A stretch of 64,000 bases of DNA from Stylophora pistillata (GCF_002571385.2 NW_019217886.1:184029-248028), one strand, 5' to 3'. Positions 42,242 through 64,000 are shown, counted from the first letter of the stretch. Notes: a model not told the origin generated them from the sequence alone. Numbers and translations: made by a program.

Positions 42242-45200
42242 ATGATTGATGGAAAGATTTACGGCACGGATTGCTTCGAAGTCGAACTGGTAAGTGTTCA
42301 AAAGTTTTACAAACTTTTCCATAGTTTATAAAATTACCAACGGGTTATTAAGACGCGTGGATTTACCATCCCAAATAAGAATCAGCGACACCCGATAAAC
42401 TTCTTACTCCGATCGCATGTCTTCTTGTACATTAGAACTCGCTACATCTTTGGTGTCAATTGTTTCACTTTTTTCACAGTTTCTACAAAGAAACGAGTTC
42501 TCGAAGCTCTACCAGGTTAAAAGCAAGGAAGATGGGAAAATATACTTAATGGAGGTGTCCCCACGGGATGCAAATTCAAGAGCACCCGTCAGTCCCTATG
42601 TTCAGTTAACCAAAACATTGCTCTCTTCGTTTTGGGTTAGTCTGCGGTTCGCGTTTCAAACTCGGTCGAAATTTTACTTTATCCTGGACTTCGCTGGCGG
42701 CCAAACACTATCGCGAAAGCTGAAATTTTATGGTGGAAAAATTCCCGAGCCTTTAGCGAGATTTTATGCCGCAGAGATTGTCGTCGCTTTGGAAGAATTA
42801 CACAGCTTCCGCCTAGCTTACAAAGATTTAGATTTAGATGCGGTGTACGTGGATTCTGAGGGCCATATCAAGCTTTGGCGTAGTTTTTGTGGAAAGCTTT
42901 ACTGGGTGCATGGTGAATGCATTTGTTCGCTCGCTGGATTTTTCCACGGAGATCCGTGTAATAACAATCATAACCTTACAAATGAGTTTGATTTTCAAGA
43001 AGATTGGAAGGCTCTTGGAACTGTGATAAATGCAATATTAACGGGAGATAACAATCAATGGACTTCCGAAAACCCGTAAGTATATATAAACATATTTCTC
43101 TTGGCACGTTTTGCCATTCGTGTGGTTATGTTGTCATCACCTAATTCTCCAGTTACTATTAACACTCTACCGCTCTCTGAATCTCTCTCTCCCGTAAAAT
43201 AAATCGGTTATGATTTGACGCAAGTTCAAAATACTGCTTTCATTTTGGCTTCAGTCTGTAACTTACTTTTTATCGATTCACTCAAAGACGGGAAAGTTTC
43301 TAATTGACATCTTGACATTGTGGACCAAAGAGACCATTAGCATTTTAAATACGCATGTTTTTCACGATTTTAATTACCATTCACCGTCTATAAATCACCT
43401 TGTATTTGACGCGATTTTTTCTTCAATTTTCAACCTACTTCCGTTAGCTGCCTTCTTTTCTCCTATGTATGTTACATCTGAACGAAAATTCTAGGTAAAG
43501 TAATCTTTTGTTGTCGAATTGTCATGAAAGATATTGTGATTACATTGGGACAAAATGCAAAACAGTCTGAGGGATTTGATTGTCTTGTTCATCTACGTTG
43601 CTGGCTGATATTCAGAGTTTTTCAGCAATTAAATTTTCAGCTAAAAGCATATTTGCGAGAGAAGCTACCGAGGCACCTCATTCGCTCAAATTATAGTTTT
43701 CATGGAATGTTGTTGAATCAATATTCGGTCTTGAAATGGGTTAAATGTTGGAGACTTTGCCTGTTTATTAGACAGCTCATTGTTTTAAAACTTTTCGATC
43801 AACAGGTGGAAAAATTCGCAAAAATTCGTTTTGGAATCTCGGTAATTTAAGCTGGAAAATGTTTCGTTGCGAAGACAGTCGCAAAAAGTGGGCTTTACAG
43901 AAACACAGAATAGATGTTTTTATTTCTCGTTTTTCTTCCGTTGAAATTGTTCACCGGAATTACACGTTTTGAGTTTTCTTGCAACATTTTTCCGCTTTCA
44001 TAATTTACATTTTCCTAGCGACTGTTCTAAGAGTTTCTTTTAAGAAAGAGAAAACTTTTCACAGACACAATGACGAAAGAAGAAAAGGAAATCGTGCCGA
44101 GAATGGCAACACTATGTTAATTATCGAATTAAAACAGATTTAACTTGATTTGAACTATTTGGACATTGTGGTACAAGATAGATTTTAGTGGAAGATCATC
44201 AAATTCGATGTGATGTTCGAATGAAAATTCTTCTATTGCTTTCCTAATAGGCTCTGAAAGTTAGAAGGTATTATTCGAACATCACACCGAACAAATCTTA
44301 AATACGAGCGTAATATTCTTTTGTTTTCAAAGACTTTACAATTTTTAAGGGTAAGTCACCAAAAGCTATGTTGACCACTTTTCTTTGTGAAAACGATCAA
44401 CGTCAATTTTTTATTTGAATGACTATCTAGGCCGTTTGATCTTGTGTCACGTTTAAACCTTTAAGACTTCAAGGTGAAAGATCAATCACGGATTTTACTA
44501 TTTTATGCAGGAAACTTCGGATGATAACAATAGTTCGTTTTAATTTTCTGAAGAACATGGTGTTTATTCTGGCGTGGTAGTACGTGACGTTGAGTTTGAA
44601 AAAAGCTGACGAAGGTTTTTCGTCATCCAATTCTAAGTTCTGTCAAGTGTCTTAAACAATACGAAAGCTCTTTTGTTATTGTTTTCCAGATTTATTGTAC
44701 AGATTTGACGTAAATTCGTTCGTGATTTAAGTTTTCGAGTGGGTAACACGACTTCATTATGCTCGACGTACAGCAATGTTAATGTTTGAACAATTGGTTT
44801 CTTGCGTAAGCGAAATGACCTCGTTGGGTTTTATCAAAGATTTCATCGAAGATCTACAGAATTTTCTCTTTTTTTTTTTCTCGTTTTATTTTTTTATTTT
44901 TCTATTTTCAAGAATTTGTTGTAGATCAGTACAGCTTACGCCGTGATGCGGGAACACGTATCCGTGCCGCGTGCACTCGATGATTTCTTGACTCGCGCAA
45001 CAGATTACGGGCTGAAAAGGTTGCTGTTCTCAATTTTCTCTTCGGTTACCTGGCAGTGTTAGTATGTAGTTGCAAAAACATTCATCTGGAAATAATTGTC
45101 CAGAATACCACCAAAACGGCAACGCTGTGACACAAATTTTAACACTAAAATCCTAAAGGTGCAGTTTACCCACAATGATCATACGCGTCACTTGCTATTT

Positions 45201-48200
45201 GAGAATGCCATAGCGCACGTGCCAATCGCGTGTGTCTCGCCAGTTTTAGACATCAGATTTGTCAACAGAACCTAGAAGGAGGTCAAGCTAAGAAAGTAGA
45301 CGCCAGAAAGGTCTCATTTTTTAAAAGTAATCTCTCTCAAGTCATCGCTATTTCACTCTTGTTCAAGGAGATCTCGAAAGGATTTAGAGATAATTAATAA
45401 TTTGTTATTAGTTTTGCTCGTGTGGACATCATAATGGTAATCTGAAAGACAGGCGACAGTTACTTTACATTTATCTAAGCGAGCGGAGGAAAGCACATGG
45501 CCAGCGTGAGCGAATCGCGAGGAATCAGTAACGCGCGAGAGGAAGAAAGCGTAAAAAAGTGACACAGGCGTCATGTCATTCTCGCTACTCTATTTGGGCT
45601 TGCCTCGTCTCTCGCGCTTTTCTCGCGCGTTTCTCGCACTCGTCTCGCGTTTTCCTCACTCCTCCCCCTCACTCGCCTCGCACTGTTTGCACGTGTGTTC
45701 CTCAGGCAACCCGAGGCATCTCTTTTCTCCTTCTACCAAAACATTAAAGCAAAACGCGAAGTACGTTTTACTTTATAAAGTATATTTCATATTTTTACAT
45801 TATATCTATAGAAGACCAGATAACCTGTTCAGTTACTTTGTATTAACACTATTATAACTATCTTCTATCCAGTGCCCTCTCGGCTTCAGCCAGTGATTTA
45901 ATAAGTAGACTGAGGCGAGGTGACATCTCTCGGGCTGACCAGATCCAGTCCCACCCGTTCTTCAAAGGAATTATTTGGCACGAGGTATGGTGCAAATGAC
46001 GTACGAAACATTCTGTTTTTATGAGGGCATTTTGCTCGAGAAAGGAGCAAATGAGAAGTTTCAAATGCATATCTTATTACAATTTTTGGCAGATTTGAAT
46101 CTTTTGTGACAAAGAGAGCATTTGGAATCAGTGCCGTAAAGCCAAACTAAAGCTTACCATAGCAGCCAATCAGAGCAAAGGAAAATATTACAAGGAACCA
46201 ATGGGAATTCGTGGGGAAAGAAAGGGAAAAAAGCGCGGGAAAAACGATTTACAAAGTCGCGATTGGTGTGAGTCTTGCATCTGATTGGTTGATAGGGTGG
46301 CAGGAGTTTTCTAGACCAGTCACAGAGCGTAACGGAAAAGAACCAATGTGGTCCAACATTGCTTGCGGTACTCGATTGGAATTCCTCTGTTTTAAGAATT
46401 TTAAATTTGTTTCATTTCCATTTGGGTGCATGCTTTAGAGGTGAATGAAATGGTGTGTGAAATTTGCGCCGCACTTTAAAGTAAAGTAAAGTTCTTTGAG
46501 ATTTCCGAAATTGAAGTACACAGTGTTCTGGCTTACTTCTCTTAAGCTCAAGCAAATGAAGATTTCAGCCGAGTCAGTCAAAGAGCGCGTTTGAAACTTT
46601 CATCTTTCAAAAACTTATCCATGGCTAATTTCGATGTCCAACTTTTAACGCCTCTAGAGGTAATTTGAAGTTCATTTGTGCCTTTCGCGTTGTTATCCAT
46701 TGTAATCAAACGAATCCAAAGGGCTTTCAATGTTTCTTAATGTTTAATGAATTACTTCGTTACCTCTGCAGTCCTTTGCAGAGGTAATGAACTAGGCAAA
46801 ATACAGTTTCTCAGACGTTTTATGAAGTAGCCCCAGGTGGTACCCGACTCCATACAAATATTTTTGTGTCTAGTTTTGAGATTGAATTTTCACAATATAT
46901 AAACAGTACAGTTATTGAACGATTTCAGCTTTGCCCATCAAAAATAACGTTTCCTTGGTAACCTCGCTTTCAGCACTTGGAGCAAAAGCTATTTATGAAT
47001 TTGCTTAGTTAAATGCAACGTCCATTACAAGAATGTCACTGCCATGAAAAATCGAAATTCGTAGGTGAAATGTTGATGTTCGATCATGGACAATGATCAG
47101 GGCTCTTCAGTTGGAAAAATGTGAAGTGAAAAACAGGGTGTCTAGAGGCAAAATGCTTCCTGGCAAGGTTTCGTTCATCGAAGCTCGAAATTAGCGTCCT
47201 AGCTGGAGAGAAAATTTAGCCGTGCCGTCGTGCTTTGAAGCAAAAACCTCTTGAGCTGGCTCAAATTAGTTAAATGAAAAGTTATTGAGGTGGTGCATGT
47301 AAAACGAACGACCAAAAAGTGTCGGAAAGATGCGGTAGTAAAATATTGATTGATAAATATTGTGAGGCGTGAGTAGTCCAGGGGTCAGTGCGCTGGACTC
47401 TGGGTCAGACGGCCTGGGTTCAAGTTCTGGCTGCGTCGTGACGTTGTGTCCTTAAGCAAGACGCTTCACTCACATGGTTTCGTCTTCTCGGATAGGACGT
47501 ATTAATTGTAAACTGCCGCTGGCAGTCTGGAAAAAGTCCCCCGCACAGTGTTGTAAAGCGCATTAGAACATAGCATAGAAATGCGCTATAGAAATTGATA
47601 TTATTATCATTAACTATTCTTATCGAAACTCGATGCGATATAAGTAGCGATAATTCAACGTTAAATAGTCAGACAATATGATTCTTTCTATTACTTTTCT
47701 GAAATGACTTCCAGGTGAGAACGAGGAAGGCACGACCATCTGTGAGCACGGACAAAGGATCCAATTCCTCTCCAGTTCAAACAAATCCTTCCGCTGGCTA
47801 TTCACCAACTGGGGCTAATATAACAAATCTACCTTCTTCGTTCTATCGGCCTCATAGTCTGTCGCACCACAGTGACCCGGGCGATACGAGATACCTCAAG
47901 AGCGCCCCTGACTATATGGTGCATGAGTCCGGTCTCTGCAGTGGGTTTTCAACCCCTGATCTCCGATCGATTAATCAAGTAACCCCGTTCTTGCGACATC
48001 ATACGTCACTTCCGCCAAGAGACATGTACTATCACTATGGAAACCCTGGTTATCCAAGCACAACACCGCGTGATTTTCAATCAAGTCCCGTGCAAAGGAG
48101 GTTAGCTTCGCGTTCTTTGAGTGATCTTTCTGCTTTAAACGGACATGATGATGCATTTGTTCCCAACCCCCAAACGACCCTAAATGAAACGTTCATCTAC

Positions 48201-50868
48201 TCAAATCATGAACTTGCTCCGCAATACGCCAGAACATTTTATACGCAGCCTGGAAACCATTCAGGAGTTTTGAATGGCGATTATGCTCTGCGTTCGACTG
48301 GCAGTTTTCCTGATTTAAGGAGTAACGTTGGTCCTTTCACTTCATGCCACTACACCTCCCACGATGGAAGATCCTCACCCACCCCCTCTGGGTACATTGA
48401 TTACAGTTCATGCACTGAGCCACCCCTCCGTGGCACATTTATGCTACCGCATCAAACCTTGCGTTACCCTTATAGCGACATTGGTGTGTCGTCACTGGAT
48501 AATTTTAGTGTAATAGGCTTACGAAGATGGGAACGCAGTTCGACAAGAGATTCGGAAAATCATCGCGGCAGTTCGGAACCCGAAAATAACCCTCGTGGTA
48601 ATCCACATTCACTTCATTCTGAGCGGAGTGCAATCGATGCTTCATCGTCCCCAGGAAAAAATCCTTCAAACAAGTCGTCTACTCAACAAAGTTCATCACA
48701 ACGTTCGGATTTCACGAAGAAGAACGACTCCGATCGAACGTCTACGAATACCACTCGTGAACGTTCGTCGACGCTAACTCGTACTCTTTCGTTATCCGAT
48801 ATGGAAGAAGGAACCAAACACACTACTCCGAAAGAAGTCCGGGAAACTAGGCGAGATAGTTTGCCAATTGGTGTCAGTAATGCAAGAGAAAAGTACCCTC
48901 TAGCCAGAGTTCCCATTCCATCATTTCGCGAATTTAAACAGAGGAATTTACTCGAAGACACTAAAAATAAACCATTGATTGAAAAGAAAGATGCGAATGA
49001 TGGGGAATCACAGAGATCGCCGAGGGCAGATTCTAAAACAGAATCTAAAAGCAAAATAGAGATGCGGGAAAAACTGAAGGAAAGGCTGTCTTCTTTGTAC
49101 GAAAGCTCAAAAGACATCTCGGCTCAGAATTCGACAAGAAAGCTTAGCACCTCTTACAAGTTGAATTCTTCGAATGGTGTTACCTCAGAGAAATCCTCTC
49201 TCATCAAATCGAGTGATTTAACAGAAACAAAAGGCAGTATTACAAAGGATATTAAGGACTTGGGCGGCTCACGAAAGATTTCTAGGGGCCGACGCGAAAG
49301 CCCGTTTTCGAAAAACGAAGTGATTCATAACCTTATGTTGAAGTACGGCTTATATGAAAAAGGCGGTCACAAGAGGGGAGATGGTTCGCGAGCGGACGCA
49401 AAGGACATTGGCTCATCGACGGATAAAGTCAGTTCTCGCGAAAACCAAAGAAACAATAAAAATTTAAAACATATTTCATCGGCTGCAAAGTCTGAAAACG
49501 TTTTGTCAAGGGAAGAGAGAAGAACGCAGAATTATTCGCAATTGAAAGAGTCCACTCCTAGAGGGAGCGCCATTTCTGATCGAAAAACTGCCACAGCTGC
49601 AACATTTGAATCGAAAAAGTCCGCCGCGGAGAGGTTTAGAGAATTGCGAAGAAAGCATGTTCTGCAGAATGATTCTGAAGATTCTCGAGCTGCAGAAAGA
49701 TTGACATTAACAAGCAGGGGAAAGACACTGGAGAGGAATTCTGTAGTAACTGCCTCAATAACCGAAAATGGCAAACAGACACCGAGGCGAGGAAAAAATC
49801 AGAACAACTCTGGTGAAATTCAAGGAGGTGATCACACTTCTACCCCAGCAGGCTTAAGAAAAGCAAATTCAAAAGTTGAGGAAGGAAGTATGGCATTATA
49901 TGAGAACACTGCGAAGCGAAACGTCGACTCGAAGTCGAATAATAACTCTGAGACATCAATCCAAGGGGAATGTTCTATTGGTCTCCGAGGTACCTCCAGG
50001 GCAATTCTTTGTGCGACAAAATTTAAGAGAGCTGCTAACAAAGGCTCGAGAAAATCAAACGATTCGCCCTTGCCAGACAAGAAAAAGCTGGGAGACATTA
50101 TTACCAAAAACGATTCAGCAACTAAAATTGTGGTCGAGAAAATGCAAGACGGAAACTCTATCGAAATCAAACGGGATGAATCATTGGGGAAACGATCACC
50201 GAATACCGGACGGCGAGATTTCCGAACGAACGGAAAACTTCGGAAAGGCGGTATTCACACGAGCATGCTCAGTGTGGCCAGCAATGCATGCTTGACCGAT
50301 TCTGAAGTAGATGATACCATTAGCTTGTACAGTAAAATGGACTCGCTTGATAGCGAGCGAGAAACAAGAGGACGTAGGTGGGAGAGTTTCCATAGCAACA
50401 TCAGTGCTGACAGTGGCTCCGCCCACATGTTTGAATTCGATACAGATTCCAATACGACCGAGTTCGAAGAGGAGGTGTTCGATGACCGTGGTTCTGAAGG
50501 TGAGTCGGGATGTAATCATCTTGAAAAATGTTCGCAAGGTTGTATTGACGCATTATCGTTTCATTACACGTGTTTTCACCGCGATGGATAACCAAAGCCC
50601 TCTATTAACAATATAAATTTTCTCATCTTCGAGATCAAATTGATACAAAAGATTTCTCGTTAAATTTTCTCCTAAGTGTCGAAACTAATCTATTATTGGG
50701 TCATTTTGGTTTTATTAAGAGTTGATAATGTAAACTGGCCACCATAAATAGTTTCAAAGTTGACGTTTCGCTCGAACGAAGGGCTAATGCTCGAAACTTC
50801 AGCTTTGAAACTCTTTACGGTGGCCAGTTTACATTATCAACTCAGTTGATTACACTAAAATTACTTTT

Positions 50869-50901
<33 letters not shown>

Positions 50902-51912
50902 TGAAACTCACCCCTTTTAATCCGTTGTTACATTGGTTTTTTTCCCACCTCACTCTGTGATAGGTCTAGAAAACGCGCTCCTCCGTCTTAACCAATCAGA
51001 TGTAAAACCGAGCCAATCGCGACTTGGTCGCCCGAATTTTCCCGCGCTTTCTACTCTGAGTACTTCTTGGCTCCTTGTGATATTCTTCTTTGCTGTGATT
51101 AGCTGTTGAGAGTATTTCGGAGTTGGTTTTACGACACACTCACTCTAGAAGTGCTTTAACGGGCAGTTTCTAAAATCTTGACCCTGTTTTTTTCTTTCCA
51201 GATGAGCATCCTAAGAGCGAGGCCGAAGTGGAGCGCACAGACAGTGGTGTCGGAGGTGACATGGGACAAGGTCCCGTGAGGCGCTCTTGGGAGGAAATTG
51301 TGATGAAGAGCTCTGAGCACTGGTCCGTTGTGGCTGCCTCCGCGCGGCACTGGCAAGAATTGGCCCGTAGGAAAAAAGCAAATGACGACGAAATGACCAC
51401 AGCAAGGAAACGAAGTTCTGTACATTCTATAACTGAAGATATGGTAATAATTCTTTCCTCCACCAAATTAACTAGTGGCGGATGCAGTCCTTGAGCTAAG
51501 AGGGTGAGGGGGGGTTCACCTGCTGGCTTTTCTTCCCTCTGCGTTTATTTTTTTTACCAAAATGAGGGGGAGGCTGCTCGGGCCTTCTGTGCCCCCCCCC
51601 CCTTAGATCCGCCATTGTTAATCCTCTCATTCTCTTAATTTCTCCGTATAATTTCAATATATTTTCAAGCATAAAAGTGAGGAAAAAGGAAATTTAATCA
51701 CCCTTCGTTGTTGTCAACGTTTCTAGGTCGAGTGCCCAGATTGTTTGAAGCACTATGTTCCAGCAATAATTAGCGAAGAACAGAAAGACAATAGTAAAGA
51801 ACCGGAGATTTGTCCCAAGTGCAAAGACAGAAAAGTGGAGAGAAAAGAGGCCATTATTGAACTTGTACAAACCGAAATCAACTATGGAAATGATCTTCAG
51901 ATCTTGAAAGAG
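42242..51912 (+). CDS. AGC-like pseudokinase + long low-complexity linker + CxxC/CxxC + DH (RhoGEF) domain start; 3'-partial
   Basis: Phase-compatible exons 42242-42289, 42480-43075, 45873-45984, 47715-50499, 51202-51443 and 51727-51912. AGC hallmarks LRFAFQTRSKFYFILDFAGG, ARFYAAEIVVALEELH, DSEGHIKL and IQSHPFFKGIIW. The last exon encodes CPDC..CPKC..ERKEAIIELVQTEINYGNDLQILKE (DH conserved region 1). Confidence 0.8.
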
Positions 51913-52930
51913 GTAAGTGACTGAGCATACAATTGGCAGGTCGTAGCGCGCCTGGTGTTACTGGATATAAAATAGGTTTGCCAACTGATAATGTGAAAAA
52001 AAGTTGCGCCTATTGGCGTGGTCAGCGGTAGGTAAGGCGGCGATAAACCAATAAGAACTTAGAATATTCAGCAACAAAAGCAACCTGGCGCGAAGGCGGG
52101 GAAACAGCATTAATCGATTCAGGATTTTCTTTGAGTTCAGATGTGATTGACTGAAAGTAGCGGGAATTACATGACAAACTTAGCATGGTAGAGTCATCCG
52201 AATTGCAAGCTCACGAAATTCAGCTCAAGGCTGTTATGTGCAACCTTTTTCTCAAAGAGGTTGCCACAATGCCAACGGGTTGTTTCCATTTCAAGCTCGC
52301 TTTCTCAAAAACAAAATTCGTAGATTACACATGGGCCAATGTTAGCAGGATTCACGTTCGGAAGACAGGCTACAAAAGTGATATCATCTGTCTTTTTGCC
52401 TCTTCCTTGGAAATTCCAGCCTATATGATGAAAACCATGAAACTTCTAGGATGAATTTGCTGTTAACTGCCACTATTTTTTTTCATGGCCCATAATCTTT
52501 TTCTTTCTCTTTCCTTTCACAAATTTTAAAACAGCCATTAAGACCTCCTCCTCTCACTCTCGTGGATTCGAATTAATTTTTCAAACAAAACTCCAAAAAA
52601 TACAATGCGACTAACTTTGTTGGTTAATGACCATGGTATTTCTGGTCAAATCATAACATCGCAGAAATGGTTATTTCAAAAGTTTTTTCGCTCCAGTTCT
52701 ACCAGCAACGTGGATACTAAGTTATCCGTAATGTAGTCAAAATATCGCCGGAAAAAACTAAATAAAAAAATCCCTACTTCACACAACCTCTTATTAACTA
52801 GTCATTTCCAGCCGAACATGTTCCTTTTCATCATCAGCCACTGTTCTTAAATTGAGATAGATGTCTATTTCCTACAATGAGAGTTGAAAAAAAATCAAAG
52901 TAGTCGATGGAGTTCCGTTGGACTGAGACC

Positions 52931-63208: not shown

Positions 63209-64000
63209 GTTTGCACAGCTATCTCGAGGTTGCAACGTTTGAGGGTTCTGTCGCTGAACTAACACAATGCTTACGTGATCTAGGAATTTATACAAGCGTC
63301 TAGCTACAGACTCACACGGTCACAGCTGTCTGGATTTTAACGAGTAAACCTTTGTTTAATTGTTCTGAGTGAATTGACTAATCTCATGTCATGCCTATAT
63401 TTGGTCACGGATGATTGACAGCGGGTTTGTTGGCTTAGCAATTTGGGGCTTTTGTATTTTTACCTCAGCATTTATTTGTAATTAGAACACGATACAAAAT
63501 AGTACTAGCAGCTAGGAACACCTTTGACACCATGGTACACACCATCAAAAACGAAATTTCGTTTTGATTTTGTCAGTACAGAGTGTGGAGTTTTTTAAAA
63601 TGGACAGACTTACCAGTGATAATGTAATGTTCAGGTGGTCTATAAATCAGTAGGTCACGTGATAGACTTTAAACATTGTTTTCTGGAAAATAACTGAGTC
63701 ATATGTAAATAAAGCGTACATAGATTAACCAGTTCAGGGATTCAAGAAAGAAATGTAATTAACGAAGTTTTTACTCCTTTATGTCAAGTGTCGTTTCAAA
63801 AAAGTTAGTTTTGGCAGAATTCCATGGTTGTTATCCCCGTTGTTATCCGCGTTGTTTGAAACACTTGCAGATAAATATCGCATAAATAGATGTAAACCCA
63901 GTCCTGGTAACGAGAACGCTCGCTCGCACGTTTCCGTCATTCAATTATACAGTTTAACCCCGCTAACACAACTCCCAAGGGGGTTATAGTTGACAGGTTG

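Follow-up and report, generated by a model that had tools for sequence, protein, structure and literature searches.

Several animal proteins carry a Rho guanine nucleotide exchange factor (RhoGEF) and a kinase fold in one chain. Trio, Kalirin, obscurin and 'connectitin' are of this kind and are found in cnidarians (PMC5499878; PMC12198301), and Trio-type kinase-GEF fusions in this phylum have already been described (PMC12198301). Their kinases lie at the C-terminus, group with the DAPK, MYLK and titin kinases, and are accompanied by spectrin and immunoglobulin repeats (PMC12198301). For another RhoGEF family, GEF64C, the fly protein reportedly exchanges nucleotide on Rho and Rac, but not on Cdc42, and induces C3-sensitive stress fibres (PMC2199320). 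The family has been catalogued with a Nematostella member of 1,374 amino acids and two calcareous sponge members, from Leucosolenia and Sycon (Table S3 of PMC5499878); the available portions of that paper tie kinases to the TRIO group only, and its supplement has no 'Pkinase' entry. GEF64C is not mentioned in the accessible sections of a review on Rho signalling among early-branching animals (PMC7600811), and full-text literature searches, with most subscription papers outside their coverage, returned no description of RhoGEF64C with a kinase domain. Here we describe such a gene in a 64,000-nucleotide stretch of the coral Stylophora pistillata (NW_019217886.1:184029-248028; hereafter the window, with positions counted from its first letter). 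Its first six exons lie at 42242-51912 on the plus strand. In contrast to the Trio-type proteins, the kinase domain is N-terminal, AGC-derived and degenerate, and Pfam finds only Pkinase, RhoGEF and PH in the orthologues. The gene is already in RefSeq as 'uncharacterized' models, and its novelty is limited to architecture and mechanism.

A single transcript for the kinase and exchange-factor domains

The six exons are spliced at GT-AG introns into one frame of 1,323 codons with zero stops (phases 0, 2, 0, 1, 0 and 0), as the initial annotation had proposed, and every motif quoted there is present in the translated protein. Exon 1 (42242-42289, plus strand like all exons of this gene; residues 1-16) encodes the start Met and the first strand of the kinase fold, with 75% identity to residues 11-26 of the Acropora orthologue P0001. 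Exon 2 (42480-43075) encodes the main body of the pseudokinase, from the degenerate G-loop to helix αF. Exon 3 (45873-45984) supplies its αH/αI end (HPFF...W), which is aligned by hhalign and is 74% identical to residues 235-265 of P0001. Exon 4 (47715-50499), covered over its full length by RNA contigs, encodes a low-complexity linker with the short conserved motifs IPSFxEF, LMLKYG and RRWESF; the Ser/Arg-rich linker of about 1000 residues noted earlier measures about 1,010, with 15.7% Ser and 8.8% Arg over residues 256-1200. Exon 5 (51202-51443) encodes a conserved pre-DH region with a DSGxG motif, found in 105 of 123 orthologues (proteins of at least 950 residues with the family C-terminal motif). 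Exon 6 (51727-51912) encodes a CxxC...CxxC motif (51733-51822) and conserved region 1 of the DH domain (from 51841). In the protein, LQRNEFSKL, YLMEV, YKDL, WRSF, EC, CPDC and CPKC start at residues 18, 38, 130, 149, 162, 1264 and 1290, respectively, and DH region 1 starts at residue 1300.

In exon 6, Pfam finds no more than a weak RhoGEF trace (E = 0.13), because the DH domain resumes beyond the 13.2-kb intron 6 (51913-64000 in the window, ending at position 1151 of the adjoining DNA, L005). Eleven further exons on the plus strand (L005:1152-9190) encode the remainder of DH and the whole PH domain; they were placed by tblastn with P0001 and are seen in RNA contigs. The full frame comprises 17 exons and 1,689 amino acids, with a complete DH followed by PH; three late exon boundaries of this model are one base off, and the frame is unaffected. 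A Pfam RhoGEF search of the same genome gave 27 matches, none of them on contig C103. It overlooked this gene because the DH exons are short, and tblastn with the Acropora orthologue recovered them.

At least half of the sampled exon 4 words were present in 20 of the 24 sequencing runs listed, and three of those 20 are recorded as RNA. The RNA evidence consists of assembled contigs, not single molecules, with four runs compared with the window and four with L005 (five different runs overall). All five joints within the six exons were found, every one GT-AG. The joint between exons 1 and 2 (42288>42479) and the joints 43075>45873 and 45982>47713 are each supported by three of the four runs, and the last two joints by all four; transcripts across 43075-45873-47715-51727, proposed earlier as a check, are thus represented. 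In the polyA run X11, a 5,313-nt contig has exons 1-6 at record positions 5313-1088, and an X11 contig of equal length and depth carries the downstream DH/PH exons at 705-1. As the record coordinates continue from one to the other, we read the two as a single contig that spans exon 1 through the last PH exon, 21 kb beyond exon 6. A spliced contig of coral L011 has the kinase in frame with the linker in a 1,280-codon frame that ends with the contig. In coral L013, a spliced contig of 1,711 codons runs from the kinase through the linker and DH-PH to the C-terminus, with intron 1 retained. One spliced transcript encodes the pseudokinase, the linker, the four-Cys motif and DH-PH.

A different explanation would make the kinase exons either a gene of their own or a relic in decay, with annotation or read-through giving a false fusion. 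Many stand-alone open reading frames (ORFs) of 110-270 amino acids do match exon 2, but they stop at the exon-2 boundary and then diverge, as intron read-through would. One contig, from run X1, continues into intron 6 short of the DH exons; its run-on matches a more highly covered transcript that reaches 51884 and is probably the 3' end of a nested antisense gene. The intron kept in L013 and the use of assembled contigs instead of long reads also speak for this explanation. Against it stand the in-frame spliced contigs of Stylophora and two other corals, independent annotations with the same fusion, and a ratio of non-synonymous to synonymous substitution rates (dN/dS) far under 1. It is largely refuted, and we consider it highly improbable. 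The kinase and DH exons belong to one expressed gene, as the initial annotation had supposed.

A search with the DH-PH region matched 96 proteins, in which the cnidarians were followed by insect RhoGEF64C and by mollusc and annelid relatives; a representative search added hemichordate and vertebrate relatives. In a quick IQ-TREE analysis of 68 DH rows, the cnidarian proteins fell into one clade with Tribolium and Epargyreus RhoGEF64C (39 of 68 rows; SH-like approximate likelihood ratio test, 100); Trio was not included, and the assignment rests on this GEF64C clade. FastTree with 132 of 157 rows recovered the same clade, in which the cnidarians were monophyletic at 100 but nested among bilaterian members. 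The DH motifs TExxY (123/123) and QRxx[KR]YPLL (122/123) are both present in the window protein, and the Acropora orthologue matches RhoGEF at E = 5e-41, with a weak PH match under the cut-off. Like Drosophila RhoGEF64C/GEF64C, the coral protein has a C-terminal DH-PH behind a long low-complexity N-terminus, four Cys before the DH domain and a C-terminal WxRRRN..NIM; the CxxC..CxxC and WxRRR..NIM features of the window gene were defined from the alignments of this study. The four Cys are at least 90% conserved in 48 orthologues, and a CPDC/CPKC-type CxxC..CxxC occurs in 111 of 123. Both CPDC/CPKC and DH region 1 are present as first described, but the Cys pairs are a general trait of the GEF64C family. 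The protein, previously annotated simply as a RhoGEF, is placed by its DH clade as a RhoGEF64C orthologue, and the gene is almost certainly a cnidarian RhoGEF64C fused to a kinase domain.

Short motifs in exons 4 and 5 (residues 653, 786 and 1191) may be binding sites or degrons of the GEF64C family. IP[ST]FxEF occurs in 19 of the 123 orthologues, including those of Xenopus, Owenia and Ruditapes, and LxKYG in cnidarians, beside the widespread DSGxG.

A degenerate AGC-type kinase domain

The Pkinase match of exon 2 (E = 6e-11) lies above the curated cut-off and is thus not a chance match. By sequence and profile, the best solved matches are SGK1 (106.5 bits), PKC-iota (104.9), MSK1 (102), S6K (99.5), RSK2 (99.3) and Akt1 (96.9); scores so nearly tied single out no AGC donor family. 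The AlphaFold2 (AF2) model of the window exon 2 (predicted local distance difference test, pLDDT, 71.7) has aPKC and Akt as its top Foldseek matches. A model of the whole domain from L011 (pLDDT 71.7) matches Akt1 with a Z score of 20.3 and a root-mean-square deviation of 3.6 over 207 aligned residues, and its structural ranks 1-13 are what we take to be AGC-group kinases. The ESM Atlas returned generic kinase clusters only, and a search of a phage collection, uninformative for this gene, gave no match. These results agree with the AGC-derived fold N-terminal to DH-PH that had been proposed. The coral domain resembles the AGC kinases (SGK1, aPKC, MSK/RSK/S6K, Akt) as its best sequence and fold matches but lacks their β3 Lys, αC Glu, DFG, activation loop, αG region and C-tail beyond PxxP, the position at which the hhalign match stops. 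This C-tail would hold the turn and hydrophobic motifs of an active AGC kinase, and no hydrophobic motif of the form FxxF[S/T][Y/F] was found by eye in residues 253-330.

The catalytic positions were counted in 34 homologues, a non-independent set made up largely of stony corals; left out were P0128, which has 99% identity with the window protein, and three P0228 copies. Glu41 (42552-42554) occupies the position of the β3 (VAIK) Lys, with Glu in 33 of the 34. The HRD-type Asp is kept as Asp132 (42825-42827) and in 19/34, while the next catalytic-loop Lys is found in none and the Asn in one. The G-loop glycines are largely gone and the αC Glu is lost; the APE-position Glu and the Trp preceding it are present in all 34. 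The loss of every catalytic motif, as first stated, was therefore an overstatement in respect of Asp132. Two residues past the β8 Leu, at the chain position of the DFG Asp, lies Arg150. Because the motif script was anchored on this Arg and on M[EH]V, its Arg and β3 counts are partly circular; independently, alignments A5 and A6 have the Arg invariant and the β3 Glu at 90% or more. The two exchanges, Lys to Glu and Asp to Arg, constitute a conserved charge swap.

Arg150 is joined straight to the P+1 loop (S-F-C-G...W...E162; 42879-42917), and the R, W and E of this segment are invariant in A5 and A6. Single-sequence HMMER sets WRSF on DFG, the register of the initial annotation. In contrast, hhalign of 24 pseudokinases against 19 kinases (probability 99.9) leaves DFG and the loop facing a gap of 15 columns, with SFCG...E aligned to T-F-C-G-T-P-E-Y-L-A-P-E. 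When the 13 residues past the Arg were scored against 13 kinases, the deletion register had a better score than either DFG register in 13 of 14 sequences. The window protein scored +19.0 versus -14.1 and -9.2 (background mean -13.9, SD 6.7); the P+1 segment of the reference P0014 was mis-picked, which lowers the favoured score only. Both analyses disfavour WRSF as DFG. In the better-supported register, DFG together with the activation loop, about 15 residues in all, would have been deleted. The P+1 loop and the APE Glu would remain, and the Cys/His stretch would be an insertion past APE instead of replacing the activation segment as originally described.

This insertion holds Cys163, Cys165, Cys176 and His180 (42918-42971), a candidate CCCH zinc site whose four ligands are conserved in 33/34 homologues. 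Judged from this pattern, the stretch is probably a zinc site. The metal binding first suggested is plausible on these grounds, but the site would lie past the APE Glu and not in place of the loop.

The domain is a kinase fold without the VAIK Lys and the DFG Asp, as in a pseudokinase. Of the residues expected in an active AGC kinase, Asp132 alone is kept, with Glu or His for the β3 Lys in 34/34, no catalytic-loop Lys and a deleted DFG. We regard it as very probably a dead kinase. It could instead bind nucleotide as a pseudokinase, or be active as an atypical kinase, with Arg150 replacing the Lys as the phosphate-binding residue and Asp132 still acting. The invariance of the Arg at the DFG-Asp position and the Asp kept in 19/34 would fit this possibility, as would the report that about 40% of pseudokinases bind nucleotide (PMC4718504). 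However, the Asp is lost in 15/34, including all medusozoans, Nematostella and Paramuricea; a Mg-binding Asp or Asn is missing, as are most G-loop glycines; and the αC helix is absent from both AF2 models. Nucleotide binding or activity is accordingly quite unlikely. The favoured catalytically dead domain resembles VRK3-like non-nucleotide-binding pseudokinases in its degenerate catalytic site and G-loop and in a conserved fold that would serve as an interaction surface; VRK3, however, keeps the Lys-Glu pair and stands alone, whereas the coral domain has the charge swap, the CCCH insertion and the GEF fusion (PMC4718504). Very short activation loops are described there as common in pseudokinases (PMC4718504).

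Distribution, constraint and proposed role

The kinase-fold N-terminus is present in orthologues from Acropora millepora, A. muricata, A. palmata, Nematostella, Paramuricea, Sanderia, Clytia and Hydractinia. Pfam missed the Paramuricea domain, which was found by our own profile, with Paramuricea among its inputs, and by alignment. The fusion thus occurs in Hexacorallia, Octocorallia, Scyphozoa and Hydrozoa, all four cnidarian classes/subclasses sampled. In contrast, the Drosophila RhoGEF64C family has no kinase domain in any of the 117 orthologues not identified as cnidarian, none of which matched the cnidarian-pseudokinase profile (best domain E 1.2) or the AGC profile (best domain E 0.23). 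A kinase is also missing from P0230, P0234, P0239, P0260 and P0274, which are short and divergent members, and no sponge, placozoan or ctenophore orthologue was identified for the kinase comparison. The lineage-specific fusion suggested at the outset is indeed restricted, but the lineage is broad, and the pseudokinase-DH fusion appears to mark Cnidaria as a whole. The anthozoan-medusozoan split is more than 500 million years old.

The window protein is identical to that of L013 at 69% of positions in the kinase, 50% in the linker, 81% in the pre-DH region, 97% in DH and 89% in PH; against Clytia, the corresponding values are 27%, 15%, 32%, 55% and 26%. Nei-Gojobori dN/dS between L011 and L013 is 0.17 for the kinase (243 codons, dS 0.31), 0.32 for the linker and 0.06 for the pre-DH region. 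Among 28 exon-2 pairs, 11 with dS of 0.25-0.45 give 0.11-0.20, although these pairs share sequences and L015 equals L016. Few changes underlie the values of 0.18-0.53 from three very close pairs, and the remainder have dS above 1.4 or no usable estimate. Comparisons of the window with other corals are saturated (kinase dS above 2) and were not used. The kinase domain is under purifying selection and is less constrained than DH, and the proposed dN/dS check agrees with a constrained domain at about 0.17.

The pseudokinase might be an independent scaffold for another pathway that shares the polypeptide, with a kinase-less isoform doing most of the GEF work. The approximately 1,000 low-complexity residues between the domains, kinase-less isoform models in four acroporid species and bilaterians without the domain all favour such an arrangement. 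Nevertheless, the fusion has been kept in Hexacorallia, Octocorallia, Scyphozoa and Hydrozoa, no second copy of the domain was found in the Stylophora genome, and among the RNA joints listed exon 4 is entered from exon 3 only. We consider the independent scaffold unlikely. A direct regulatory or localising role of the pseudokinase on the GEF is somewhat favoured.

In this favoured arrangement, the DH-PH unit likely activates RhoA, given its intact DH motifs and the action of the fly GEF64C through Rho (PMC2199320); the preference is taken from the fly orthologue. The pseudokinase, in which the nucleotide and metal part of the active site is lost, would have no catalysis, and an ion pair between Arg150 and Glu41 would close the empty ATP cleft. 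Instead of the deleted activation loop, zinc bound by the CCCH motif would fix the P+1/APE loop, so that the domain would not be switchable by loop phosphorylation. The C-lobe core, P+1 loop and CCCH motif could then make up a rigid binding unit, held by zinc, by which the GEF is restrained or positioned; regulation would work through contacts with protein, in the same chain or in a partner. Taken together, we read the gene as a cnidarian RhoGEF64C in which a docking module without catalysis, stabilised by zinc, gates the GEF or determines its location, with a probability of roughly 0.6.

Several observations weigh against this reading. Both AF2 models lack a built αC helix, and αC and the Cys/His insertion are weak (pLDDT 45-57), the latter in models that are metal-free. 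Hydractinia has no CCCH motif, ligand spacing differs between anthozoans and medusozoans, and Sanderia has His instead of Glu at β3. Nucleotide binding in pseudokinases is described as poorly predicted by sequence (PMC4718504). Bilaterian orthologues function without the domain (0/117), which is thus not needed for exchange activity. Four cnidarian entries have no kinase: one Montipora isoform, one JGI protein that is partial, and the models of Oculina and Actinostola, which are partial or truncated; the Actinostola model keeps the exon-1 peptide. Kinase-less RefSeq isoforms of about 1,505 amino acids, starting past the kinase, exist in three Acropora species and Montipora and suggest that a form without the pseudokinase module exists. 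Among the Stylophora RNA joints listed, none matches this isoform, and its starting Met is not conserved in Stylophora.

A more far-reaching version would make the domain an undescribed, phylum-wide pseudokinase class with an excised DFG and loop, a Glu-Arg-locked site and a zinc knuckle replacing the phosphorylated loop, acting as a built-in RhoA GEF switch with the kinase-less isoform as the ungated form; its Cys/His site could also confer sensitivity to metal or redox state. We regard this extension as doubtful.

Neighbouring genes and significance

Intron 6 contains two tandem class-V aminotransferase genes (PF00266) on the minus strand, antisense to the GEF, at 52931-55688 and 60387-63319. 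They show weak PvdN- and SufS-like matches under the cut-off, and the two genes share 98.6% identity across 1,757 bp of their first-exon regions. In Oculina, model P0126 closes, immediately behind the same exon, with antisense sequence of this type of gene, so the nesting appears to be shared. An RNA contig of run X2 (depth 272; window 51884-53000) also covers the final 29 nt of exon 6, and the X1 GEF contig continues into the same region. The X2 contig probably represents the 3' end of the nested gene overlapping exon 6 antisense, the contigs themselves showing no strand. Further downstream, a PH-region exon is tandemly duplicated (L005:6818-6973 and 7659-7814), with contigs of three runs on the second copy and of one on the first; this duplication may be real or an assembly artefact. 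Directly upstream of the GEF, plus-strand exons at about 28712-39001 belong to an actin-related gene, presumably ARP3-like to judge from its motifs. About 27-34 kb past the window end (L007-L008), minus-strand ORFs include a 746-aa exon beside a tandem repeat; by appearance, we take them for a leucine-rich-repeat protein, with a presumed JmjC-like gene further on.

The cnidarian RhoGEF64C represents a second, independent fusion of a kinase fold and a RhoGEF in animals. Its kinase domain would be an old pseudokinase of unusual design, in which the activation loop was removed and a candidate zinc site was added. The GEF64C family is poorly understood and has been lost in placental mammals. The orthologues in Nematostella, Clytia and Hydractinia make the role of this domain in Rho-driven morphogenesis directly testable.

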